The notes: generated by a model not told the origin, from the letters alone. A stretch of DNA of 64,000 nt from Escherichia phage ManiMatter_Bas94 (PQ850617.1), one strand, 5' to 3'; counted from the stretch's first letter, positions 29,936 through 56,836 are shown. Program-made: numbers and translations.

Positions 29936-31106
<1,171 letters not shown>

Positions 31107-34045: not shown

Positions 34046-34540
34046 TTAGTGTGTATGCATCCAGTTTAACCCAATCTGACAATCAGAAGCCAGAGGACAC
34101 TCCATGTTCAAGTACTCACCAGCCTTCTTAACACAAAGCTCGGTGTACTCTTTGAGTTTCTGTACATCATTACGGTTCACTGAGAACTGGCCCTCATCGT
34201 GCATATCAATTACCTTAGCACAACGAACTCCATCTTTCTCAATCCACTTGTTAAGGAACATCATAGCATATTTCATAACAACAGCACCAGCACATTGCAG
34301 GAGTGTGTTAAGGGCTTTATGAACCATAACCTTACCAGTGGCATCCCGTCTCATTGTAATCTTACGACCATCAACGCCAATCAAATACCCTTGAGCAGCT
34401 TTCTCTGTCATACGATCAATGAGGATTGCAATACATGGGTTCTCTGCCAAGAAGCGTGCTCGCATCACTGAACCTTCGTCAGCTCCACCACCTACGATTG
34501 AACCAAGCTTAGCATCACCAGCACCATAGTTAAACGCATC
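34046..34540 (-). CDS. DNA polymerase (family A, T7 gp5-like), C-terminal exon
   Basis: Frame open from 34540: ...FNYGAGDAKLGSIVGG...VDGRKITMRR...ALNTLLQCAGA...IDMHDEGQF... (motif B remainder and motif C HDE); close to T7 gp5 C-terminus. Confidence 0.75.
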   Translation of the reverse strand, partial: DAFNYGAGDAKLGSIVGGGADEGSVMRARFLAENPCIAILIDRMTEKAAQGYLIGVDGRKITMRRDATGKVMVHKALNTLLQCAGAVVMKYAMMFLNKWIEKDGVRCAKVIDMHDEGQFSVNRNDVQKLKEYTELCVKKAGEYLNMECPLASDCQIGLNWMHTH

Positions 34541-35243
34541 TCATATATTCGACAAGAGCCGCAACACTCTCGCCCGTTCTCTTATGAACTGCTACATGTC
34601 GCCATGTAGGATAGACTATATCATCACCCTCTGTCGAGGGGTTGGGCGCTTCCACCGGCATTAGCTTCCGGTGTACTCCTTTCGGATAGTCGTTGCACCT
34701 TCAAGTATTCTATAGCTGTTTCTAATCGGCTAACATCATCTTTCAATAGCCCTAAAGCTCTGTTGCAGTTGTGACACAACAGACCGCGTATTACTCCGGA
34801 TTCATGGCAATGATCAACCACAAGTTTAATTCTGTGATGTGTTGCCATTGCAAACCCTTCGCCCTTACAGATAGCACACTTCCCATCCTGATCAGCGTAC
34901 ATCTTTTCGTAATCGCTGGCTGTGATTCCATAAATTCGTTTGAAGTAGGAATTTCTCCAGCCCCTATCTTTGCATTCATCAGAGCAATAATGTTCAGATG
35001 GTGCATTTGGTTGAAAATCTTTTGAGCAATTACGACAAGGTTTTGGATTGAACCGACCTTGAGGGTATTTACTTGCCTCAGCAGTCTGTTCTTCTTTAGT
35101 TTTAGTTACAGTTGTATATTCCATAAGCACCTCCATGTTGAGTTGCTATAGAATACTTGCTTGGCTCAGGATTGTCTACTAGAGAGTTTCCCTGAGTTCA
35201 CCCAATTTAATCGACGAGATTACTCTCGAAGTATCCATTTACG
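34541..35243 (-). mobile_element. Intervening sequence in polymerase gene (probable group I intron carrying an HNH homing endonuclease)
   Basis: About 700 nt between polymerase motif B halves (exon 1 ends ...PTRDNAKTFI-stop); contains free-standing HNH ORF with own start; exon 2 has no in-frame AUG before conserved residues. Confidence 0.55.
34624..35136 (-). CDS. HNH homing endonuclease (intron-encoded, putative)
   Basis: 170 aa; DHCHESGVIRGLLCHNCNRALG HNH motif plus Cys-rich zinc-binding segments. Confidence 0.75.
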   Translation of the reverse strand: MEVLMEYTTVTKTKEEQTAEASKYPQGRFNPKPCRNCSKDFQPNAPSEHYCSDECKDRGWRNSYFKRIYGITASDYEKMYADQDGKCAICKGEGFAMATHHRIKLVVDHCHESGVIRGLLCHNCNRALGLLKDDVSRLETAIEYLKVQRLSERSTPEANAGGSAQPLDRG

Positions 35244-36596
35244 TCAGATAAACGTTTTAGCGTTGTCACGAGTAGGAAGACCAGCAAGTTTCTGGTTGTG
35301 GGAGTGGATATCACCTTCAAGAAGGATATCACGATACATAATAGCAGAAGCTAAACCACGTTCTGCCAGAGCTTTCTTAGCTGGATTATTCTCTTCGATT
35401 GCTTCAGCAAGCATATCCCTACATTCTTTAATGAGGTAGTGAGCGAGCATACGAAGTTCAAGTCCAGAACCATCATACCCTAAGAATACTTCTTTACCAG
35501 CGGGTATGTAATATTTGTAAGCACCTACAGGCTTATCTTTCTTCCCCGGCTTACCTTTCTCGTAAATTACGTTAGTACCTTTTCGTATATAACAACCATC
35601 AGGAACAACGTTAGTAATAACGAAAGGACGAGAGTGATCACTGTCTGAATTATAGTCAGACTCAAACAAACTGCGACACTCATGACCAAACAAACCACGG
35701 GAGGGAATATTAACCACGATACGATGTTTGAATCGAAAAGTTGGCGTAGCGCAGCTGTTAGCTTCTGCCGAAAGTTTACCATCTTCGCGTTCCTTTGCTA
35801 TGAGTCCACTGATAAGACCTAGCCTGTGAGCCGCTACAACGCGCCTCTTAAGCAAACTTCCAACACTCCCTAGCTCGCCCCCTAACCCTTCTTCAAGAGT
35901 CTCCTCGAGGTTTGTAGGAGCTGTAGGCCACTTGTTTGAGGTAGCTAGTGCTATCTTAATCTCATCAAACGTGATAGGTCTACGTCGGTTAGGGTTTAAA
36001 CCTAAACCAAACACATAAGCCTTCATATAGTTCTTAGTCTTAAACCTAAAATGCTTCTCTAAGAACCTCCTAATATCTGCGTCAACCATCTCGGCTGTCT
36101 GCTTCTGTTTAGCATTACCTCGAATCCAAGCTGAATACCACGCTTGGTATGTTCCATACTTTCGTATATCTTTCTTGATTTCAAAAGTATTCCAAGGTTT
36201 CTTTGATACGTTAAACTCTGGAGGAAGAAAACCCTCATCCATAAGGGCTTCTTTAACTCGTGCATCTTTCGATGGGTCAAAGTCCACGTATTCAACACAG
36301 GTGAATGCTCCACCAATGTCTTCTCTCTTAAGGCCAACTCTATCACAATAGGCTTGAGGCCACTTCTGTAAAGCTCCAGACTTCTTAAATGGCTTCATAT
36401 AAGTAGAGCCATCTAATCTCATCTTAGGTAAGAGAGGGATCAGTTCTTTGTCGATATTAACAATAATCTCTTTAAGGAGGTGAACATACCACCGAGCATT
36501 TCTTCGGTTGAAACTCACTCCGTGCTTCGCTTGCTTAGAGATTATATCAGCGACAGTCATCTCTGTCAAAAATGGGAGAGCGTCCGGGTTGCTCAC
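35244..36596 (-). CDS. DNA polymerase (family A, T7 gp5-like), exon 1 (polymerase domain, N-terminal part)
   Basis: 450 aa; motif A GYDGSGLELRMLAHY; ends in motif B ...GDIHSHNQKLAGLPTRDNAKTFI, nearly identical to T7 ...GDIHTKNQIAAELPTRDNAKTFI. Confidence 0.8.
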   Translation of the reverse strand: MSNPDALPFLTEMTVADIISKQAKHGVSFNRRNARWYVHLLKEIIVNIDKELIPLLPKMRLDGSTYMKPFKKSGALQKWPQAYCDRVGLKREDIGGAFTCVEYVDFDPSKDARVKEALMDEGFLPPEFNVSKKPWNTFEIKKDIRKYGTYQAWYSAWIRGNAKQKQTAEMVDADIRRFLEKHFRFKTKNYMKAYVFGLGLNPNRRRPITFDEIKIALATSNKWPTAPTNLEETLEEGLGGELGSVGSLLKRRVVAAHRLGLISGLIAKEREDGKLSAEANSCATPTFRFKHRIVVNIPSRGLFGHECRSLFESDYNSDSDHSRPFVITNVVPDGCYIRKGTNVIYEKGKPGKKDKPVGAYKYYIPAGKEVFLGYDGSGLELRMLAHYLIKECRDMLAEAIEENNPAKKALAERGLASAIMYRDILLEGDIHSHNQKLAGLPTRDNAKTFI

Positions 36597-39243: not shown

Positions 39244-39600
39244 TCATACTGGTTGATTGCTCTTGTTAGTACCCACACTTTCATTATTCTTCTCTTTATG
39301 AAGTCTATAAACAGCTGTCGCCATGCAAGCAACAGCTTCATTGTGTGGGAGATGCATCCCTGTAGAACCATCCCAATCTTTGAACTCATTGTCAAAGACT
39401 CCGGTAGGCTCTGGATACAGAGCTTGCAGCTCAACCAAATCATTAGCAACTTGTTGCCATTTATCATCAGACCAGATAGGGTCATCCAACCAGTAATACA
39501 AATAGGAATGGATGATTAATTGCCTTCTGTGCCGATTAATTACTTCAGCGGGACTTATCTCACTTCCATTTGAAGTCCTAAATGTATTACTGTCAATCAT
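39244..39600 (-). CDS. Hypothetical protein
   Basis: 118-aa ORF. Confidence 0.4.
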   Translation of the reverse strand: MIDSNTFRTSNGSEISPAEVINRHRRQLIIHSYLYYWLDDPIWSDDKWQQVANDLVELQALYPEPTGVFDNEFKDWDGSTGMHLPHNEAVACMATAVYRLHKEKNNESVGTNKSNQPV

Positions 39601-39602
39601 GA

Positions 39603-40259
39603 TTAATTATTCCAAGTAGTTGATAAGGCTTTCCAAGAGATAGGATAAAGTTTCTTCATTTCTTCATCAATAGTTTGTGCAAACAGTCGGACCTCATACT
39701 GAGCGTGCTCTGACAGACGTTGACGGCACACATCTGACCAGCCATATAGAGAGCCAGTCCACACCCACTCAGTGATCATCCCCTGAGGAAGAACAAATCG
39801 AGCTTGCTCTGGTGCAACAAATTCAATCAACTTATCATATGCTGCTAGAGAGGATTCATATGCATCGTTAATCAGCATTAATGCTTCAGCTCGTTCTCCA
39901 TCGATGAGTTGAACCCCTGAACCTGCATGGAGGTCCGAAGGTCTCGCAAAAATCTCTTTAGGGATGAAGACTTCAACTGCTCCATCTTTATACCGACGGG
40001 ACATTTCGTTCCACGAGAATCCAACCTGATGCTTGCCCAGCTGTCTCGCAATTGCGATAGGTGCTTTGCATCGGAAACTGACTTGTGGGTGTCGGAATGG
40101 AGTAACATGCTTTTCTCTTGCGAGGAAGTTGATGAGACGTTCATCACGTTCATTTAAATCACCTTCACGGGTTACGCCAAAGGAAACTCGAGCTGCGTTT
40201 ACTACGCTACGATCGCTTCCCATAGCTTCGATTAATGTTGCTTGTAGTTGTTCATTCAT
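39603..40259 (-). CDS. thyX: ThyX-family (flavin-dependent thymidylate synthase-like) protein
   Basis: 218 aa; ERLINFLAREKHVTPFRHPQVSF...MSRRY resembles ThyX core; signature region appears divergent. Confidence 0.6.
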   Translation of the reverse strand: MNEQLQATLIEAMGSDRSVVNAARVSFGVTREGDLNERDERLINFLAREKHVTPFRHPQVSFRCKAPIAIARQLGKHQVGFSWNEMSRRYKDGAVEVFIPKEIFARPSDLHAGSGVQLIDGERAEALMLINDAYESSLAAYDKLIEFVAPEQARFVLPQGMITEWVWTGSLYGWSDVCRQRLSEHAQYEVRLFAQTIDEEMKKLYPISWKALSTTWNN

Positions 40260-40274
40260 CCGTGAATATCCTTA

Positions 40275-40550
40275 TTATTTATTGCTCAGTGCTGTGTCCA
40301 AAAATGCTTTCAGGTTTGCTTCAGTCTGCATACCAGAGAGGCTGTAATGTGCGCCACTATTCCGGTCAGGCACAACGAAAGCAGGAATGCTTCGTACACC
40401 ATACTTAACAGCTTGTTCACGACCGTCACCCTCAAGGATATTAATCTCTTCCACTTCTACATCGAACTCCTTAACAACCTTCTCAAAGATAGGAGCCATT
40501 GCTTTACATGGAGCACACTGATCACTATAAAACTTAATTACTTTAGACAT
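40275..40550 (-). CDS. Thioredoxin
   Basis: 91 aa; active site CAPC in thioredoxin-fold context. Confidence 0.8.
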   Translation of the reverse strand: MSKVIKFYSDQCAPCKAMAPIFEKVVKEFDVEVEEINILEGDGREQAVKYGVRSIPAFVVPDRNSGAHYSLSGMQTEANLKAFLDTALSNK

Positions 40551-40796: not shown

Positions 40797-41360
40797 TTAG
40801 TAAGACACATCACCACTTGAGTGGGACATGTTGCTCTTGACAAAGTAGCAATACTTGCCAAGACCTTCATTAATTTCTTGAAGCATACTTTGATCGACTG
40901 GATAAGTGGCTAAATCGCCATCAAACTCATCCATCTTCTCAATAATACACAACAAGGTCATGCACATATCAGAGAGCATACCGTCCATGTCTAGATCAGC
41001 GTTACCCTCTGAGAACCAAGCATGAGAGAGGTAGTTAGCTGCTGTAGCATCCACTTTAACACAGTGGTAACGCATACGTTCAGCAATACGATCTCCTACT
41101 TGTCGTGCGTAATCTTCCAGCTCGTCAAACATACCATGAACACCCTGAAATCCTGCACCAGAGACGTTCCAGTGGTAGTTTTTAGCTTTGATGTGCAAGA
41201 GTTCCATATTAGCTTGTAAGCAGCTCAGGATGTGTTCTAGGCTGTTTCCACTAATCATACCCTGCATCGTTTCAAGGCGAGAGATTGATAGGTCGGACCG
41301 GTCTAACATGCTATAACTGTCACGACCAATATCAGGTAAATCAAAGACATTCTTATGCAT
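40797..41360 (-). CDS. Dps/ferritin-like protein
   Basis: 187 aa; HWNVSGAGFQGVHGMFDELEDYARQVGDRIAERM matches Dps ferroxidase-site pattern. Confidence 0.6.
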   Translation of the reverse strand: MHKNVFDLPDIGRDSYSMLDRSDLSISRLETMQGMISGNSLEHILSCLQANMELLHIKAKNYHWNVSGAGFQGVHGMFDELEDYARQVGDRIAERMRYHCVKVDATAANYLSHAWFSEGNADLDMDGMLSDMCMTLLCIIEKMDEFDGDLATYPVDQSMLQEINEGLGKYCYFVKSNMSHSSGDVSY

Positions 41361-50021: not shown

Positions 50022-52052
50022 TTAACCTCTATTCAATGAACATTTAGGAGAATTACAATAAACTTGATTCATAGAACCAAGCGTACAACTTTCAGCATCG
50101 CGCCACGGAATCTGCTTAAAACACCCTGAGCAGTAGCCGAGGGTTGACCACATTGCTTTGGTGAAGTCAGTGCTTCGGTTTCCGTCGAAGCTGACAACAG
50201 TTTTGCGGAGAGCTGTTCGTGATTCAGGAAACACACCTGCTTTCTCAGCAGGTTCCTCCTTTTTTGGCTTAGTTGAGATTGCAAAAATACTGTTGCTACG
50301 TTTCTCAACATAAGCATCAACAACATCCTCCAGAGTAATGCCTGTCTGTTTCGCTGAGGAAGGTAATACAGTCATACGACCAATCATATCTTCAGTTACA
50401 CGTAAAGCAAATTCAGGACGACGGGCGTTTGTTGTATCTGTTGCTTTAATCCAGACATAACCATCTTTGATCGTAGCATTAGATACTTTCTTCTTTATAT
50501 CTACAGCGCAGACTTTACAGATATCTTCACCACGAAGACGACTGAGTTCATCATCAAACTCGTTCTCTGTTTTAACTTCACCACAGATTTCACAAACACC
50601 AATAGGAGTTTCCTCCTCTTCTTCATCTTTAGGCTTAGTCAAACCTTCCAGACATTCAGGGTGCCAGTAGCATTGATATGCGAAGACTGCTTTAGGTGCA
50701 TCCTTCCAATCAATGTGTTTATCACAACCGCCACAATCACCATGAGAATGTGCTTCCCAGAATTTACGAGTGATAGTAACGCCATTCTTGTTGACGAAAC
50801 TATCATTCATATCAAAAGGGATATCATCATCAAAGTCAGCAGTAGTTGACTCAGGCTCCTTTTTCTCCAGAGATGGGTCAACAAAACGACCTGCTGTGAT
50901 CACTAAACGAACCATAGCATTAACTTCGGAGATACAGGATACTGTCCCACGGTAAACAATTTTAGGGTCTTTCAGGGCATCCTGATAAGCCTTAATGTCT
51001 ACGTTATGAACATCACCTTCGATATACTCTTGAGATTTCTCATCGTAGATATAACCAATCATCTTACCACGAGAAGGAACAGCACCAGCAGTTGCATAAG
51101 GGACAAACTCATGTGGTGTGATCTCCACAGTCATGTCGCGGCGAATGTCAATGTTTCGATCGCTTGCGATTTTGTTTTGACTTACCACTGCGTTTCTTCG
51201 ACGAACGTCTGCCGCTGTCACTCCCGGCTTCGTGTCGTAAGGATTGCTTGTACTGCTTTTTGAGGAACTTTGATAGTTGCTTTGGCTGTAGTTGTTCGAG
51301 TAGTAATTGCCCCAACGATTGATTACCGTAAAAACCGGAAGCTCGTGGGCGACCTCTTCAACTAGAGTCATGCTGTTGTTTGACACATCAAAGATGTATT
51401 CTGTACCAACTTTACATTCAAAGTGCTCATCAATGCGATTCTTGTGAGACCTAGAACGCTTCAGAATCCACATCAACATATCTTCTTCAGAAGCACCAAA
51501 CCAATCTCTGTTACAACGTGCAAGATGGAAAGGACGCTCTTCATTACGGATGATATGAAGACGATTATCAGAAGCATCATGCCAGATTAAGGTGAAAGCA
51601 CCATCCAGCTTTTGAATAGTCTCTGCTGCACCAATAGTGTTAATAGAGTGGCAGATGTTTTCACTGTCTACCTCGAAGTTTTTACTGTCAGGTAACAGGT
51701 CTTGGTTCATCAAGGTTCCGTTATGAACCAGAGTGATGTTACCGTGTTGGAAAGGATGGGCGTTCTTGGCGTTAACTGCACCTTTCGTTGCATGACGGCT
51801 GTGACCAACAATCCATGAAGGTGCTACAGTGTAAGCTGTTTCACCAGTGGTGTGCTTCTTGTACTCATCTTGAAGGATGAATGCGAAAGAAGGAAGTGCC
51901 TCTTTATAAGTGAAGACTTCTTTAGTGCTTTTACGCTGACCAAAGATACCAGAGGAGTGCTGTCCTCGGAATACTCCAGCATAAAAGAGTTGGTTAAATA
52001 TATCTAAATCAGTGCTTGACAGATTACCGCCAGCTAATACGATGCCACAAAT
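50022..52052 (-). CDS. Class II (Ntn) glutamine amidotransferase with C-terminal Cys-rich modules; apparent AUU start
   Basis: Conserved N-terminus CGIVLAGG...RGQHSSGIF...HSRHATKG...NAHPF...VHNGTL lies upstream of the first ATG (51713); frame opens at TAG-AAA-ATT-TGT with AGGTGG 8 nt upstream; C-terminus has two CxxC...W...C...C modules. Confidence 0.7.
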   Translation of the reverse strand: MCGIVLAGGNLSSTDLDIFNQLFYAGVFRGQHSSGIFGQRKSTKEVFTYKEALPSFAFILQDEYKKHTTGETAYTVAPSWIVGHSRHATKGAVNAKNAHPFQHGNITLVHNGTLMNQDLLPDSKNFEVDSENICHSINTIGAAETIQKLDGAFTLIWHDASDNRLHIIRNEERPFHLARCNRDWFGASEEDMLMWILKRSRSHKNRIDEHFECKVGTEYIFDVSNNSMTLVEEVAHELPVFTVINRWGNYYSNNYSQSNYQSSSKSSTSNPYDTKPGVTAADVRRRNAVVSQNKIASDRNIDIRRDMTVEITPHEFVPYATAGAVPSRGKMIGYIYDEKSQEYIEGDVHNVDIKAYQDALKDPKIVYRGTVSCISEVNAMVRLVITAGRFVDPSLEKKEPESTTADFDDDIPFDMNDSFVNKNGVTITRKFWEAHSHGDCGGCDKHIDWKDAPKAVFAYQCYWHPECLEGLTKPKDEEEEETPIGVCEICGEVKTENEFDDELSRLRGEDICKVCAVDIKKKVSNATIKDGYVWIKATDTTNARRPEFALRVTEDMIGRMTVLPSSAKQTGITLEDVVDAYVEKRSNSIFAISTKPKKEEPAEKAGVFPESRTALRKTVVSFDGNRSTDFTKAMWSTLGYCSGCFKQIPWRDAESCTLGSMNQVYCNSPKCSLNRG

Positions 52053-52131
52053 TTTCTAATCCACCTGAAGGGTAAACCCTTTCATCTAATTAACCTTTAA
52101 ATTGTGCCCCTTCGTCAGAGGCACCCATTGA

Positions 52132-53235
52132 TTACAGCGCTTGCTCTAACTGATTTTCCAGATGATCTGGAATATATTCTGTGATGTTGTTATCACTGTG
52201 TCCTGACTCACGTAGCAAGTCAAAAATAGCACGGATACGCTGTTCTGATGCAGATCGTACAGTAGATAGGTCAGTTGTACGAAGCATAACCAGAATTTCT
52301 TGGTACAAGTTGTTAGCGTTCCCTCGAATATACCCAAGGAATCCATAGAAGTCTGGAATAAGACGTAAGTCAACAAGAACTTCTCCGTTGGAGTTGGTTC
52401 GACGTAAACGAATACGACCAGACTGCTCTACTTCATGAGAACGACAATACAAAACATCACGGGCCATACAATACCCTGAATGCAAATCCGATTCGTCCAG
52501 ATTGTAATCCAGAGGAAGATAAGGAAGCATTGGGGCAAATCGTACAGTATTTAAATGCTCAATAAACTGGTCATTGCTCATCTCTGCGTTATCTAAAGCC
52601 AGCTTCTTCAACATTAAGAAGCGGTTAACCAGATTGAGAAGTTGACCACGTTTCCACTTAGGCTCGCTGATACGAAACTCAATTGAGCCGTATTGGGCAA
52701 GTGGCAGAAGGTTCAGAGATGTATACTTATCCCATGAACGAACCAGACGGTTGAAGAACTCTTCACCGTCGTAGTTAAATGCGTCAGAGGCGTTCATTAC
52801 CTGTGCTTGTACCACTGCGAAAGCAGGGCAGAAGTTGCTACGGTAACGATGATAGCCTGAACACTTGAACAACATTTTTTCATAGAAGGTCCAAGCGAGG
52901 ATGGTTTTCTTGAGGATATTACTATCAGCATCCCTCATATCCATATGAACGTGAGTAGAGCAACGCCAAGTCCCCTCGGCGTGCGATTCAGCTACTGCTT
53001 CACTCAGGTTGTTGATAGCGTCTAACAACTCCTGTCCATTGTAAGGTCGTGAACATACCATTTCACAACCATTACGCAGGGAACCATCCTCTGTACAATC
53101 CCACATATCTGCTTCAATATGGTCGGAACCTTCGAGTTCTAGTTCGATACCGATACCGCACTGAAGTGCAATTGAACTATGCGCCTCAGTTAAACGACCT
53201 TCTCGGTATCCAAAAGTTTGCGCTACAGTTGTCAT
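52132..53235 (-). CDS. Amidoligase (glutamine synthetase/GCS-like COOH-NH2 ligase family)
   Basis: 367 aa; GIGIELELEG...DGSLRNGCEM pattern recalled for Amidoligase_2-type proteins. Confidence 0.55.
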   Translation of the reverse strand: MTTVAQTFGYREGRLTEAHSSIALQCGIGIELELEGSDHIEADMWDCTEDGSLRNGCEMVCSRPYNGQELLDAINNLSEAVAESHAEGTWRCSTHVHMDMRDADSNILKKTILAWTFYEKMLFKCSGYHRYRSNFCPAFAVVQAQVMNASDAFNYDGEEFFNRLVRSWDKYTSLNLLPLAQYGSIEFRISEPKWKRGQLLNLVNRFLMLKKLALDNAEMSNDQFIEHLNTVRFAPMLPYLPLDYNLDESDLHSGYCMARDVLYCRSHEVEQSGRIRLRRTNSNGEVLVDLRLIPDFYGFLGYIRGNANNLYQEILVMLRTTDLSTVRSASEQRIRAIFDLLRESGHSDNNITEYIPDHLENQLEQAL

Positions 53236-53849
53236 AACGAATCCACCAACGTAATATTATAATTGCTAAGATTTTCAGAGATGTGATGAAAATGTTCCAG
53301 AAGTCGCATCGGTTGCTGACCATAAGAGTCACGAGATGCTTCCAGATCTACTTGCCCTACCAGTGCACCTTTATAATGCACTTTACCATCTGTAGGGTTG
53401 ATGTAAATGTAACGAGTGACCAATCCATCAAACTCTGGATTGAACAAACTGTAAACCATCTCCCCAGAGATAGAACGACCAATCCCAGGAGCATTTCGAA
53501 TCTTATTACCCATTAAACCCTTTGCTCTCTGACGAACAGGGTTAATGTGAGTCCAGCTCACAGTGTTACCGTTATGGAACAGATAACCAACATCAGGTGA
53601 TTCAAGAATCAAGGTTGGGTCGAACACTGGAATATTCATCACAGTGTTTCGAAGATTCCCATGCTCGTTCTTGTACCACTGCTCTACAACAAAATACAGA
53701 GCCTGCTCTGCTTCGTGAGAGAAGTCATCGCTGCGGAAGTTACCGCTCTGCTCAACACCAATCACAAAACATGGAAGGTTGATATTACCTGCTCGTTTAG
53801 CAATCCATGTACCGTTATAGTAATGAGAAAAATCAGATACTAAGCTCAC
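53232..53849 (-). CDS. Hypothetical protein (cluster member)
   Basis: 205-aa ORF translationally coupled within ligase cluster. Confidence 0.4.
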   Translation of the reverse strand: MSLVSDFSHYYNGTWIAKRAGNINLPCFVIGVEQSGNFRSDDFSHEAEQALYFVVEQWYKNEHGNLRNTVMNIPVFDPTLILESPDVGYLFHNGNTVSWTHINPVRQRAKGLMGNKIRNAPGIGRSISGEMVYSLFNPEFDGLVTRYIYINPTDGKVHYKGALVGQVDLEASRDSYGQQPMRLLEHFHHISENLSNYNITLVDSL

Positions 53850-53858
53850 GATAACCTC

Positions 53859-54665
53859 TTATGCTACCTGAAGGCGTTTAATCTGCTGGTCCGCTTCTTT
53901 AACGTTATTACCGTTAATGATTTCATGAAGCTTCTCAATCGGAAGGCGAGAGTGCAATGCCATCAGAGTGGACATGTCACACTGCTGAACAACCTTGTCA
54001 ACCTGATCATAAACAAACTTACGGTTTTCACGATCGCTAATCCAGAAGTTAGACAGGGAACGATATTCAATACCATAGTCCTTGTAGCGGATTGCAGATG
54101 CTTTACCGTAGAGTTCTTTACGGCGAGTGTCTTTATCCATAATAACTGCTGGGAGGGATAGGAAGTAGTCACACAGCACACCCAGCATCATCTGAGTTTG
54201 CAGGGTGATATCCAAAGCACCAACTACGCCAAGATGTACGTGACCACCGGCAGTACGAAGCCCCTTATTTTGAGAAGTCGGGGATGGGTTCTTCTGACCA
54301 GTGAAAGCGTTGAAATCAGGAGTACATCCAAAGATGAACGCTGATTCATTGAAAGTCTTCATCTCTTCTTCAGTGAAGATGTGAGAGCTAACACCCGGAG
54401 CTGTTTCCATGTCCAGTTTGTTCAGGACATTATTGGTGAGATCGATACCACGTTGCATGTTGTCATTAAACGCTTCAAAACCACTCTGTGGGTCAATATC
54501 AAACTCAGCCAGTACGTTGTCCTCTTGAAGACGAACATCCTTAGCCAGAGCGATCTTATCGTCCTTAGAACAACCTAACAGACCAGCTACAGAGGTGATG
54601 ATTCCTTTGCTGGTACGAACGAACATTTCCGGATCCGATCCTATTAAGAATTTGCGCTTAGTCAT
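53859..54665 (-). CDS. Second COOH-NH2 ligase-like protein (putative)
   Basis: 268 aa; N-terminal FLIGSDPEMFV; assignment from memory of phage ligase families, unverified. Confidence 0.4.
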   Translation of the reverse strand: MTKRKFLIGSDPEMFVRTSKGIITSVAGLLGCSKDDKIALAKDVRLQEDNVLAEFDIDPQSGFEAFNDNMQRGIDLTNNVLNKLDMETAPGVSSHIFTEEEMKTFNESAFIFGCTPDFNAFTGQKNPSPTSQNKGLRTAGGHVHLGVVGALDITLQTQMMLGVLCDYFLSLPAVIMDKDTRRKELYGKASAIRYKDYGIEYRSLSNFWISDRENRKFVYDQVDKVVQQCDMSTLMALHSRLPIEKLHEIINGNNVKEADQQIKRLQVA

Positions 54666-55629
54666 TGTAATACTCCACTAGTTCAGAAAAGAGAGATGAG
54701 ATTGTGTTACCGATTTCTTCAGGATTAAGACCAGAATCTATTCCAGTACGCTGAATTATTCGTGCTGTAAAGTTTTGTACTGTAATGTTTTCCAACTTAT
54801 TGTCTATTGCTTCACGTTTGTGACCATAACAGTTGGACCAGAGTTTTAACCACTCTGACATTGTTTCATACTCATCCGGATCTTGATCTTTAGCACGAGC
54901 AAATCTTCGTAAGACATCTGTGTTGTGGTTACGAACATAACCATTCTCGTTGTCACCAACACCGAAGGGGTTTTGAACCCATACTTGCTTCGTGTATTCA
55001 TCAGAGTCAACAACCAAAGGAAGGAATGCTGCTGCTGACATATTGTTGTCAATAACAACAGACGTGCTTTCACTACTCCCATTGGAAGCTCCTCGTTGAG
55101 ACCACCTACCAAAGAAGTCACGACCCAACCCAGCTAACAATAGAGCGATGCCAATGCGTTTACGCTTCAGCCACTCTTCCCTGTCTTCAATTCCTTCTGC
55201 TAGGAAATCCATTCCACGATACTGCCCTTCCAAAATGCTACGGAAGAGCATAAGTCCTGTGAAGATTTGATCTGCTGGATGCTCACGGAGGTTGACAGCT
55301 ACGCTATTCGCTGAAGTGATTGTGAATACATCGCGATAGCAAGACATGGAGTTCATAATATCTGCTGTTTCAACCAAGTTCTTTTCAATATAAGATGCAT
55401 CATGACCGTGAAAAGAGTGAGTCCAGTAATTCAGCATCTCCAGTTGCAAGTTGATATCACGGTTGAAGCGTCTATAACGCCCCTCTTCCATGATAACTTC
55501 GCCATTAATATCGCTTACGCATTGGCCTTGCATGTAGTTGTGAATACCGAAGCACCCACGACCTAAGAACTTCTGTTCCCCTAAATCTTGTTGAAGATTC
55601 AGAGGTACGATCGTTGTGGAGATTGACAT
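54658..55629 (-). CDS. Hypothetical protein (cluster member)
   Basis: 323-aa ORF overlapping neighbours. Confidence 0.4.
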   Translation of the reverse strand: MSISTTIVPLNLQQDLGEQKFLGRGCFGIHNYMQGQCVSDINGEVIMEEGRYRRFNRDINLQLEMLNYWTHSFHGHDASYIEKNLVETADIMNSMSCYRDVFTITSANSVAVNLREHPADQIFTGLMLFRSILEGQYRGMDFLAEGIEDREEWLKRKRIGIALLLAGLGRDFFGRWSQRGASNGSSESTSVVIDNNMSAAAFLPLVVDSDEYTKQVWVQNPFGVGDNENGYVRNHNTDVLRRFARAKDQDPDEYETMSEWLKLWSNCYGHKREAIDNKLENITVQNFTARIIQRTGIDSGLNPEEIGNTISSLFSELVEYYND

Positions 55630-55639
55630 AACTAACCTT

Positions 55640-56836
55640 TTATTTTCCTAAAAATAATCCGCTCATAATACCATCCCACTCAGAGGATGGGATCACTGAA
55701 TACTCCGAACTTTGGTCCAGAGTTCCACTACTAAATCGCTGAACAATGTTATAGATGTTGAACAGGTCTTTAGCCTCAGTACGGATACCGTAGACTAATT
55801 TATCAGATGTTCTTTCATCTTTAGATACCCGACGAGCAAAATTAACCAGAAGGTTGTCACATTTAAGCGTTTCTGACCCACTCTCTACCAAATCAGGGTG
55901 CATCACAGGCAAGAACATCGAGTTATTGACTCGCAACTCTGCTGTTTCGTCATTCTCATAATGAATCCACTTAAAGTCTTCATCACGGAAGTGACCACAA
56001 CCATCTCTGTACGACTGCTGACGCCAAGGCACTTGAAATGCTTCAGCGTATTTATCAGCCATGCCGACTGTAAACAGCGACGCTGGGAAGATACAAGCAT
56101 CCCAATCATTACCAACCAGAGTTGCTTTAGTTTCCCCCAAGAGGTTAGTGTAAGTGCTAACCATTCGGGAGTAAATGTAAGCCTGAAGAATTGTCCAGCC
56201 TTCAATCAACCATTTATGAAGGAAGGTTTCAACTTGACTCTCTTCGTCTTCGCAATAGAAGGTTCGGTCTAGCATTAAATAGAACAGACAACGATCAGCA
56301 GGGATGTTCTCAGTTGCTACACCCATAAAACCTTTCTCGTGCCAGCGTAAACAGGAGGGACGATCTTTGTCCACAAATGCTTCCATAGCTTCCAGTACAG
56401 CACGAGGTGAGGTTTGGTATTCAGGGTTTTTACTATTCCAACGATCAATGTTGTTCTTAGGAGGTGTGTCTTCATCTTCATACGAACACCAACTTAAAGC
56501 TTCGGATACATGCTCTGCGTCATGCCAACGTCTAAAACCTAACATCTTCATGTGAGTTCCGGAGTTCCAGATATGCTTGATTTTACACATATCCATCTCT
56601 CGGCTTAACAGGAACTCTTCCCCATCAGCACTACGAACGTTAGCTTCTTCATGCCACACTCGAACGTGCATATTCCACCCATGAGTTGCCTCATACATAT
56701 TAGGGTCGAAGTATTCATATTCGTCGTCATCTTCATCAACGCCACCATTATAGTTGCGAAGCTGAAGGAATCCATAACAAGGAGGGTTAACCGTTAAAAC
56801 ATTACCTTCAGTATCTTCTAATGTTACTGGAAACAT
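55640..56836 (-). CDS. Hypothetical protein (cluster member)
   Basis: 398-aa ORF, acidic, Trp-rich. Confidence 0.4.
   Translation of the reverse strand: MFPVTLEDTEGNVLTVNPPCYGFLQLRNYNGGVDEDDDEYEYFDPNMYEATHGWNMHVRVWHEEANVRSADGEEFLLSREMDMCKIKHIWNSGTHMKMLGFRRWHDAEHVSEALSWCSYEDEDTPPKNNIDRWNSKNPEYQTSPRAVLEAMEAFVDKDRPSCLRWHEKGFMGVATENIPADRCLFYLMLDRTFYCEDEESQVETFLHKWLIEGWTILQAYIYSRMVSTYTNLLGETKATLVGNDWDACIFPASLFTVGMADKYAEAFQVPWRQQSYRDGCGHFRDEDFKWIHYENDETAELRVNNSMFLPVMHPDLVESGSETLKCDNLLVNFARRVSKDERTSDKLVYGIRTEAKDLFNIYNIVQRFSSGTLDQSSEYSVIPSSEWDGIMSGLFLGK

Follow-up and report, generated by a model that had tools for sequence, protein, structure and literature searches.

A ThyX-family thymidylate synthase gene of Escherichia phage Bas94 carries a K-H-Q variant of the RHR signature shared by a mainly viral subfamily

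The thyX locus of Bas94

The window analyzed here, a stretch of 64,000 nucleotides from Escherichia phage ManiMatter_Bas94 (PQ850617.1), is, judged from its sequence, that of a small-genome Kuravirus-type podophage of the subfamily Gordonclarkvirinae. The 10 kb around thyX shares 98% identity with Escherichia phages Bas92 and Bas93, 97% with LAMP, and about 91% with phiEco32, and Bas92 differs from the window only by mobile-endonuclease insertions, which lie away from thyX. The genome is 58% A+T, and past ∼28 kb its genes are oriented on the minus strand and make up the early, replication, and nucleotide-metabolism module. The thyX gene (positions 39603 to 40259, minus strand) occupies the same place in this module as in phiEco32, Bas92, Bas93, and LAMP. 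The products of these Kuravirus/Gordonclarkvirinae orthologs are 91.7% to 99.5% identical in amino acid sequence to Bas94 ThyX, the upper value being that of the Bas92 “thymidylate synthase” and the lower that of phiEco32 thyX. The gene is already known: it is named thyX or thy1 in phiEco32, and over 100 deposited genomes of Escherichia phages carry it annotated as “thymidylate synthase.”

The reading frame is full length, starts with ATG, has a Shine-Dalgarno sequence (AAGGA) 9 nt upstream, and encodes a predicted flavin-dependent thymidylate synthase of 218 amino acids, here assigned to a K-H-Q/x8/SRRY subfamily. Its translation includes the strings quoted in the original prediction (...INFLAREKHVTPFRHPQVSFRCKAPIAIARQLGKHQVGFSWNEMSRRYKDG...), and the ThyX-family membership proposed there was confirmed in several ways. 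First, the protein matched the Pfam profile PF02511 (Thy1) with an E value of 8.8e-44 and 150 bits (cutoff 24.8), covering profile positions 1 to 190 of 191, and it scored 128.3 bits against the NCBIfam equivalog model TIGR02170 (thyX), the cutoff of which is 87.9. Second, phmmer matched it to solved ThyX enzymes with E values of 6e-30 (Thermus thermophilus) and 5e-25 (Thermotoga maritima). The nearest relatives in the PDB are canonical ThyX enzymes at 33% to 34% identity, and no solved structure within the K-H-Q/SRRY subfamily was found there by phmmer and Foldseek. Third, an AlphaFold2 model computed from a 62-sequence alignment (A1) had a pLDDT of 95.8 and a pTM of 0.89, and its best 50 Foldseek matches in the PDB were all T. 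maritima ThyX, with TM scores of 0.77 to 0.81.

The genes around thyX were also analyzed. A stand-alone Nlig-Ia domain protein (39244 to 39600, minus strand; Pfam PF22745, E value of 2.5e-35; phrog_6466), which corresponds to the NAD+-binding domain Ia of LigA-type ligases, begins 2 nt past the thyX stop. Immediately upstream of thyX is a gene for a thioredoxin-fold protein (40275 to 40550, minus strand; Pfam Thioredoxin, E value of 3.5e-13), with a Dps/ferritin-like gene beyond it. The dCTP deaminase gene (42861 to 43394, minus strand) lies 2.6 kb from thyX and is supported by Pfam DCD (E value of 3.6e-34), by TIGR02274 (106.3 bits versus a cutoff of 92.8), and by the annotation of its Bas92 counterpart as dCTP deaminase. 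The gene at 43404 to 44759, a “nucleotidyltransferase,” carries a GGAIRD...DIDIF motif and matches the PolyA_pol head domain weakly, with an E value of 0.011 that fails the cutoff; from these sequence features its product looks like a CCA-adding-type tRNA nucleotidyltransferase and not like a DNA-modifying enzyme. Farther away, a block on the minus strand (47262 to 56836) encodes an Amidoligase_2 protein, a phiEco32-type COOH-NH2 ligase, an ATP-grasp protein, a glutamine amidotransferase, and a GGACT protein, and no link between this block and thyX was found. Two of the three companions named in the original prediction, the dCTP deaminase-family gene and the ligase cluster, are therefore real, whereas the third, a HAD phosphatase gene, was not found by Pfam, PHROGs, NCBIfam, the Bas92 annotation, or a search for DxDxT. 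The annotation of the 98%-identical Bas92 also contains no ThyA, dihydrofolate reductase, ribonucleotide reductase, 5-hydroxymethyldeoxyuridine (5-hmdU) kinase, or glycosyltransferase. An 89-amino-acid reading frame at 29936 to 30205, called “deoxynucleoside monophosphate kinase” in Bas92, was considered as a pathway member and set aside, as no P-loop is visible in it.

None of these neighbors belongs to a conserved thyX module. At 165 other loci with a KHQ-type thyX, genes for dCTP deaminase, thioredoxin, Dps-like, nucleotidyltransferase, and Nlig-Ia proteins were each found nearby in 0 to 2 cases; for example, a thioredoxin gene occurred at a single locus (L071), and an Nlig-Ia gene occurred beside thyX at none. 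Only PhoH recurred near thyX, at 18 of the 165 loci. Outside this phage group, the KHQ motif is not linked to dCTP deaminase, nucleotidyltransferase, or amidoligase genes.

The signature segment and the residues around flavin and dUMP

The motif RHRx7S is regarded as the defining signature of ThyX (Myllykallio 2002, quoted in PMC2826268), and one ThyX phylogeny discarded sequences that departed from it by more than two dissimilar residues (PMC2826268). The corresponding segment of Bas94 ThyX, located by HMMER alignments to 1kq4 and 6j61 and by residue mapping, reads K76-H77-Q78-V-G-F-S-W-N-E-M-S87-R88-R89-Y90 (39990 to 40034, minus strand), the K-H-Q codons being AAG CAT CAG at 40034 to 40026. 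In the HMMER alignment, RQWFRHRIA-SYNELSGRY of T. maritima stands opposite RQLGKHQVGFSWNEMSRRY of Bas94. With the T. maritima residues numbered after subtraction of a 12-residue tag, R78 is replaced by K76, R80 by Q78, and G89 by R88, whereas H79, S88, R90, and Y91 are retained as H77, S87, R89, and Y90. The literal RHRx7S signature is thus replaced by K76-H77-Q78-x8-S87, the extra residue being F81, and the “SGRY” of canonical enzymes becomes “SRRY.” The original prediction had called the RHR...S signature divergent from an alignment made by eye and had asked for a profile and structure alignment; HMMER gave the same alignment, and no intact RHR...S was seen in place of KHQx8S. Outside the segment, R165 of T. 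maritima stands opposite Y172.

The one-residue insertion is not in itself aberrant because the x8 spacing also occurs together with an intact RHR in ThyX proteins encoded by actinophages, which share it with Bas94 ThyX (RHRIGFSYNEQSGRY versus KHQVGFSWNEMSRRY). Examples are gp91 of Mycobacterium phage Bxz1 (RHRSGWSYNEESGRY) and gp70 of Gordonia phage Untouchable (RHRIGFSYNEQSGRY). Unlike Bas94 ThyX, these actinophage enzymes keep both RHR and SGRY and are canonical at the flavin contacts. In the ThyX of Pseudomonas phage PAJD-1, the spacing is the classical x7.

The functions assigned to the altered positions concern the flavin above all. Through hydrogen bonds, the RHR motif of ThyX holds FAD at its AMP phosphate, ribityl, and FMN phosphate, and the first Arg of the motif also contacts the isoalloxazine and dUMP and is listed among the dUMP-stabilizing residues (PMC6514825). 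In structures of T. maritima ThyX in the reduced state, published in 2025, the guanidinium of R78 faces N1/C2=O of FADH- and stabilizes its negative charge (PMC11940539). In Bas94, a basic residue at the position facing N1/C2=O is present, with Lys76 for R78, but of the three arginines that hold the flavin phosphates in T. maritima, two are gone, Q78 and Y172 standing in the places of R80 and R165. As read from the residues themselves, Lys76 retains the charge, and Gln78 retains hydrogen-bonding capacity and drops one charge. Lys76 would therefore hold a positive charge facing flavin N1/C2=O, as R78 does, and Gln78 would stand in for Arg80, which binds phosphate. A lost flavin-phosphate Arg may be made good by Arg88, a residue specific to the subfamily.

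The remainder of the active site has counterparts throughout. H53, Q75, N85, E86, S88, R90, Y91, E144, R147, R174, and H178 of T. maritima are all represented in Bas94. The dUMP-binding residues S88, R90, Y91, R147, R174, Q75, and E86 correspond to S87, R89, Y90, R154, R181, Q73, and E85; in alignment A1 (62 sequences), the conservation of each is complete or no lower than 90%. The folate-site residues H53 and E144 correspond to H51 and E151, both invariant. In total, H51, N84, E85, S87, R89, Y90, E151, R154, and R181 are invariant in A1, the mean column identity of which is 24%. Several of these invariant sites are represented by T. maritima mutant structures in the PDB (H53A/D, S88A, R90A, Y91F, E144R, and R174A/K). 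The variant appears, then, to touch mainly the flavin cradle and to leave the rest of the substrate pocket unchanged, and the K-H-Q/x8/SRRY combination would represent a cradle for the flavin phosphates that has been remodeled around an unaltered pocket. The suggestion that substrate binding may be altered, made when the divergent signature was first noticed, is poorly supported because the changes lie mainly at flavin contacts, the one substrate-contacting position that differs is only an Arg-to-Lys change, and the other dUMP and folate residues are intact and invariant.

Comparison with canonical ThyX/FDTS enzymes (T. maritima TM0449, 1O26/4GT9; T. thermophilus, 6J61; Mycobacterium tuberculosis; Helicobacter pylori; PBCV-1 A674R) leads to the same picture. 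The expected reaction is the same, as are the fold (TM score of about 0.8) and the dUMP and folate residues H53, Q75, E86, S88, R90, Y91, E144, R147, R174, and H178. Bas94 ThyX differs from these enzymes in having KHQx8S for RHRx7S, SRRY for SGRY, and Tyr at the R165 position and in belonging to a subfamily that is almost entirely viral.

Conservation and distribution of the variant

Several trends were apparent when relatives of Bas94 ThyX were compared. First, the variant is nearly constant among close homologs. KHQ with the x8 spacing was detected by regular expression in 117 of the 120 closest homologs (55% to 88% identity), and the other three also have KHQ and deviate only at position 82. 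Second, it extends to distant ones. A non-Arg residue at the third position together with SRRY was present in 526 of the 535 relatives gathered, a sample that is biased toward the K-H-Q subfamily, and when 1.84 billion cluster representatives were searched with HMMER, 370 clusters were returned at an E value of ≤1e-30, most of the best 150 carrying (K/R)-H-(Q/K/T)-x8-S-R-R-Y. Third, the substitutions follow a pattern. Across 160 aligned sequences, K (85%) or R (14%) occupies position 76; Q, K, T, or H, but never R, occupies position 78; residue 80 is Gly in 95%; and Arg stands at position 88, a Gly in canonical enzymes, in 96%. That the KHQ variant is conserved in this manner across the homologs of Bas94 ThyX is a sign of purifying selection and points to design, not decay.

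A further indication comes from inteins, which typically occupy functionally critical sites. In several relatives, an intein is inserted exactly between F81 and S82 (...VVHN/SWNEMSRRY), which suggests that the signature segment is functionally central. That Bas94 ThyX might be a decaying or catalytically dead relic with a nonenzymatic role, an idea for which the departure from the RHR signature is the one argument, is thus extremely improbable. The frame is full length and has a Shine-Dalgarno sequence, the variant and the catalytic residues are strictly conserved over hundreds of diverged homologs, the fold is predicted with very high confidence, and it is the signature segment itself that the inteins target.

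The subfamily is widespread among phages. A tblastn search with a 32-amino-acid signature peptide matched 394 phage records, among them those of Kuravirus and its relatives, Salmonella phage 7-11, Erwinia phages Y2 and Faunus, the 52-kb Escherichia coli/Yersinia myoviruses, phages of Vibrio, Aeromonas, Pseudomonas, Acinetobacter, Xanthomonas, and Sinorhizobium, many roseophages, and Pelagibacter phage Mosig. Genomes were also scanned with a degenerate DNA pattern for KH[QK]xGxxWNExSRRY. It matched 45 loci in a collection of 185,579 prokaryotic species, each represented by one genome, and at least 120 in IMG/VR, numbers that are to be read with the estimate, made from the 160-sequence residue frequencies, that about one in four members of the subfamily is caught by the pattern. 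On these counts, the type is common in viruses and rare in cells. Moreover, many of the matches in prokaryotic genomes are phage-like (for instance, L007, L020, and L032) or are near-identical across unrelated metagenome-assembled genome (MAG) bins.

Three bacterial lineages nevertheless carry a KHQ-type thyX in what appear to be housekeeping contexts. In Spirochaetia, the gene adjoins pyrD, a pyrF/pyrE fusion, and pyrB, both in a complete chromosome and in a second spirochete contig. Among the Spirochaetia genomes with this type is OZ251568.1. For a gene that is fixed where pyrimidines are synthesized, the simplest explanation is a thymidylate synthase. A search with the spirochete ThyX returned only two close cellular relatives before the matches passed into the viral cloud, on metagenomic contigs of phage size, which suggests that this thyX was captured from a phage. 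In Chloroflexota, thyX adjoins a pyruvate dehydrogenase E2 gene in four MAGs, the ThyX proteins of which are 62% to 64% identical to one another and the E2 proteins 45% to 73%, a divergence that points to long vertical inheritance. In the Poribacteria-type lineage, synteny is conserved in three contigs, the flanking genes being 70% to 96% identical.

The “universally conserved” RHR signature is therefore absent from a large, mainly viral branch of ThyX and probably fails for most viral ThyX proteins. This is a modest new insight, and it concerns a signature that is used for filtering ThyX data sets and that figures in ThyX-targeted drug design. In the literature covered, no biochemical, genetic, or structural work on any K-H-Q/SRRY enzyme was found, and in its reference lists PBCV-1 ThyX was the only viral enzyme cited as characterized. 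A 2004 report by Liu & Yang on “distinctive ThyX motifs” possibly describes the same variant in Trichodesmium.

Function of Bas94 ThyX and restriction resistance

Bas94 ThyX is most likely a working dUMP-to-dTMP synthase from a virus-dominated subfamily with a remodeled flavin-phosphate site. An ordinary thymidylate synthase is favored because the same signature occurs in the chromosomal housekeeping contexts of the three bacterial lineages. By analogy with T. maritima ThyX, the enzyme would be a homotetramer with the flavin, presumably FAD, at the subunit interfaces. NAD(P)H would reduce the flavin, the CH2 of methylene-tetrahydrofolate would be passed to flavin N5 and then to C5 of dUMP, and a hydride from the reduced flavin would yield dTMP. 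A dCTP deaminase and ThyX together make up the classical route from dCTP to more dTTP. In Bas94, the deaminase probably provides dUTP, which host Dut would convert to dUMP for ThyX, and ThyX may in this manner boost the supply of dTTP for a 58% A+T genome without host ThyA and FolA. As it stands, thyX of Bas94 is an ordinary phage auxiliary gene of nucleotide metabolism.

The same product could also be made with the flavin held differently, that is, with a looser or exchangeable FAD, with FMN for FAD, or with another reductant or electron donor. Such altered cofactor handling, which we regard as rather unlikely, is in line with the changes R80 to Q78 and R165 to Y172, which take away charges found at the FAD pyrophosphate of canonical enzymes, with a putatively compensating Arg88 as a hallmark of the subfamily, with the overwhelmingly viral distribution, and with the thioredoxin and NAD+-binding Nlig-Ia genes that flank thyX in Bas94. 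However, the enzyme keeps His77 and has a basic residue at position 76, the two flanking genes are not conserved at other KHQ-type loci, and the R165 position varies in canonical ThyX too, being His in T. thermophilus. If it did apply, it would be a refinement of the dUMP-to-dTMP synthase described above, an adaptation to the infected cell, and not an exclusive alternative.

A more radical reading connects the enzyme to the DNA chemistry of the phage. The Gordonclarkvirinae are reported to be remarkably resistant to restriction-modification systems by no known mechanism, and it was speculated that deoxyuridine DNA is formed via the dCTP deaminase and the nucleotidyltransferase (PMC11990801). 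Thymidylate synthase-like enzymes have been repurposed for DNA modification elsewhere, namely, the ThyA-family dUMP/dCMP hydroxymethylases of SPO1, T4, ViI, and M6 (PMC8989533), although these belong to the classical thymidylate synthases with a Cys nucleophile and are unrelated to Bas94 ThyX in fold and mechanism. An example within the Thy1 fold family is PolB of polyoxin biosynthesis, a ThyX-like UMP/dUMP C5-methylase (PDB 4P5A) that shows a ThyX homolog in other pyrimidine chemistry; its match to Bas94 ThyX is much weaker than that of true ThyX (E value of 6.6e-15 versus 6e-30). In a repurposed enzyme, dUMP or another pyrimidine nucleotide would be turned into a noncanonical product that enters phage DNA and contributes to the restriction resistance. 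For instance, 5-hydroxymethyl-dUMP might arise via water capture of the exocyclic methylene intermediate. The chemistry is conceivable, as 5-hydroxymethyl-dUMP has been trapped as a derailed ThyX intermediate.

We consider it very unlikely that Bas94 ThyX has been repurposed. The absence of the canonical signature, the presence of EcoRV, EcoRI, and EcoKI sites in the window, and the unexplained amidoligase/ATP-grasp/glutamine amidotransferase cluster would fit such a role. On the other side, the uracil- and phosphate-binding residues are invariant, including Arg181 (R174 of T. maritima); the signature recurs in many unrelated phage groups and, in three bacterial lineages, at chromosomal housekeeping sites, including a locus for pyrimidine biosynthesis; the 165 loci reveal no conserved linkage to modification genes; and 5-hmdU kinase, aGPT-Pplase, and glycosyltransferase are not annotated in Bas92. 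There is also very little chance that the K-H-Q/x8/SRRY enzymes in general differ in chemistry, making 5-hydroxymethyl-dUMP or another C5-modified dUMP, and that this underlies the resistance of the Gordonclarkvirinae. We know of no ThyX-fold DNA-modification enzyme, and none was found in the literature covered on phage DNA modification. If a modified nucleotide were made after all, Bas94 ThyX would be the first such enzyme known to us.

The wider suggestion of noncanonical nucleotide metabolism, which the original prediction had drawn from the combination of genes, fared no better, since no modification module was identified, the HAD phosphatase was not found, and the dCTP deaminase and ThyX amount to dTTP supply. 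The established 5-hmdU hypermodification pathway consists of a ThyA-family dUMP hydroxymethylase, a 5-hmdU DNA kinase, and aGPT-Pplase or other tailoring enzymes (PMC8989533). Its enzymes are missing from the Bas92 annotation, and Pfam and PHROGs revealed none of them among the reading frames scanned. Replacement of dT by dU presupposes that dTMP synthesis is absent or inhibited. Here, the thymidylate synthase gene is conserved and apparently intact, which argues, though not conclusively, against the replacement suggested in PMC11990801. Nothing on Kuravirus DNA chemistry was found in the SU10, Durham-collection, E. coli HS phage, and carboxymethylcytosine reports, nor was any evidence seen for a role of ThyX in antirestriction.

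Given the restriction resistance of the group, unusual DNA chemistry somewhere in the Bas94 genome is nonetheless possible. The window contains 32 EcoRV, 12 EcoRI, 9 EcoKI, and 86 EcoP1 sites, and resistance to these specificities therefore does not come from missing sites. Other sites are strikingly and selectively avoided. CCWGG occurs 4 times compared to about 81 expected and GATC 131 times compared to 297 expected, and CTGCAG, GAGCTC, CCATGG, and GGTACC are absent compared to 19, 17, 10, and 10 expected, respectively. Avoidance of T-containing sites such as CTGCAG, GAGCTC, and CCWGG would be needless if thymine were broadly masked, and it implies that such enzymes do encounter the DNA, which speaks against thymine being masked in general.

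Restriction-site avoidance and candidate resistance genes

Across the whole window (1-64000), restriction-site avoidance was strong and selective. Expected site counts were calculated with an order-3 Markov model for 5- and 6-mers and an order-2 model for GATC. CCWGG was found only 4 times compared to ~81 expected, and GATC 131 times compared to 297. Several hexamers were missing altogether, including CTGCAG (19 expected), GAGCTC (17 expected), and CCATGG, GGTACC, and CACGTG (10 expected for each), and GCATGC was seen once against an expectation of 10. Other sites occurred near the expected frequency, for instance, GATATC (32), GAATTC (12), GTTAAC (27), and CAGCTG (25). The general trend was that 6-bp palindromes with two or fewer A/T positions were depleted twofold to tenfold, whereas AT-rich palindromes were undepleted.

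Because the restriction resistance of these phages is unexplained, a phiEco32-type gene block on the minus strand (47262-56836) is a candidate for its source, with no link to DNA found. The block combines an Amidoligase_2 protein and a COOH-NH2 ligase with a GGACT-like gamma-glutamyl cyclotransferase, a RimK-like ATP-grasp protein, and a glutamine amidotransferase; it also encodes three large proteins (323, 398, and 205 aa) that could not be assigned to a family. A DNA modification role was suspected by the BASEL-2 authors for the "nucleotidyltransferase" encoded at 43404-44759 on the minus strand (PMC11990801). Its GGAIRD...DIDIF motif, taken together with a sub-threshold match to the PolyA_pol head domain (E value of 0.011), suggests an enzyme of the CCA-adding or tRNA repair type. 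The C-terminal 250 residues of this protein showed no detectable homology, and the protein had no PDB sequence matches.

The thyX neighborhood and signature variants in relatives

The gene next to thyX, located on the minus strand at 39244-39600 and beginning 2 nt past the thyX stop codon, encodes a stand-alone Nlig-Ia protein of 118 aa (Pfam E value of 2.5e-35). In LigA-type ligases, Nlig-Ia serves as NAD+-binding domain Ia, and the remaining ligase parts are missing from this protein. Relatives carry the name "DNA ligase" for it, but 118 aa is far below ligase length. The Nlig-Ia gene was not conserved as a thyX neighbor elsewhere. The 89-aa ORF at 29936-30205 (minus strand) is named "deoxynucleoside monophosphate kinase" in the 98%-identical phage Bas92. 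This annotation looks unreliable: no P-loop is visible, and a dNMP kinase would need to be longer.

Among the representatives of the HMMER protein clusters, some long ThyX relatives, P0121 (480 aa) and P0134 (352 aa) among them, carry an intein exactly at F81|S82 of the signature segment. The C-extein of one of these is identical to this phage's SWNEMSRRYKDG. An even more divergent signature, of the W-K-Y type with a longer insertion (RQWWKYAVASSHLEDQTGWNESSRRY), was found in Streptomyces phage Wofford (locus L171) and Bacillus phage Riggi (locus L172); it retains SRRY, and the motif His is gone entirely.

Virus-type K-H-Q/SRRY thyX genes are also fixed in chromosomal housekeeping neighborhoods of three bacterial lineages. 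In the Spirochaetia chromosome OZ251568.1, thyX (L004, 3001-3657) adjoins pyrD, pyrF/E, and pyrB. Further loci are L045, four in Chloroflexota (L008, L019, L028, and L035), and three of the Poribacteria type (L006, L046, and L047). These genes probably represent a thymidylate synthase that cells captured from phage.

Insertions relative to Bas92

Compared to Bas92, the family-A DNA polymerase gene is interrupted by a 704-bp insertion (34538-35241), flanked by ORFs for an N-terminal part of 450 aa (35244-36596) and a C-terminal part of 140 aa (34046-34468; Pfam DNA_pol_A positions 242 to 380). Inside it lies an Endonuclease VII-family gene on the minus strand (34624-35136; Pfam E value of 1.2e-23), and the insertion is either an intron or a mobile homing endonuclease insertion. 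Two more insertions were found. The first (41362-41909) contains an HNH_3 endonuclease gene (41353-41847, minus strand) that separates the Dps-like gene from the ORF that follows it. The second, of ~410 bp (42454-42864), carries two small ORFs and lies directly upstream of the dCTP deaminase gene.
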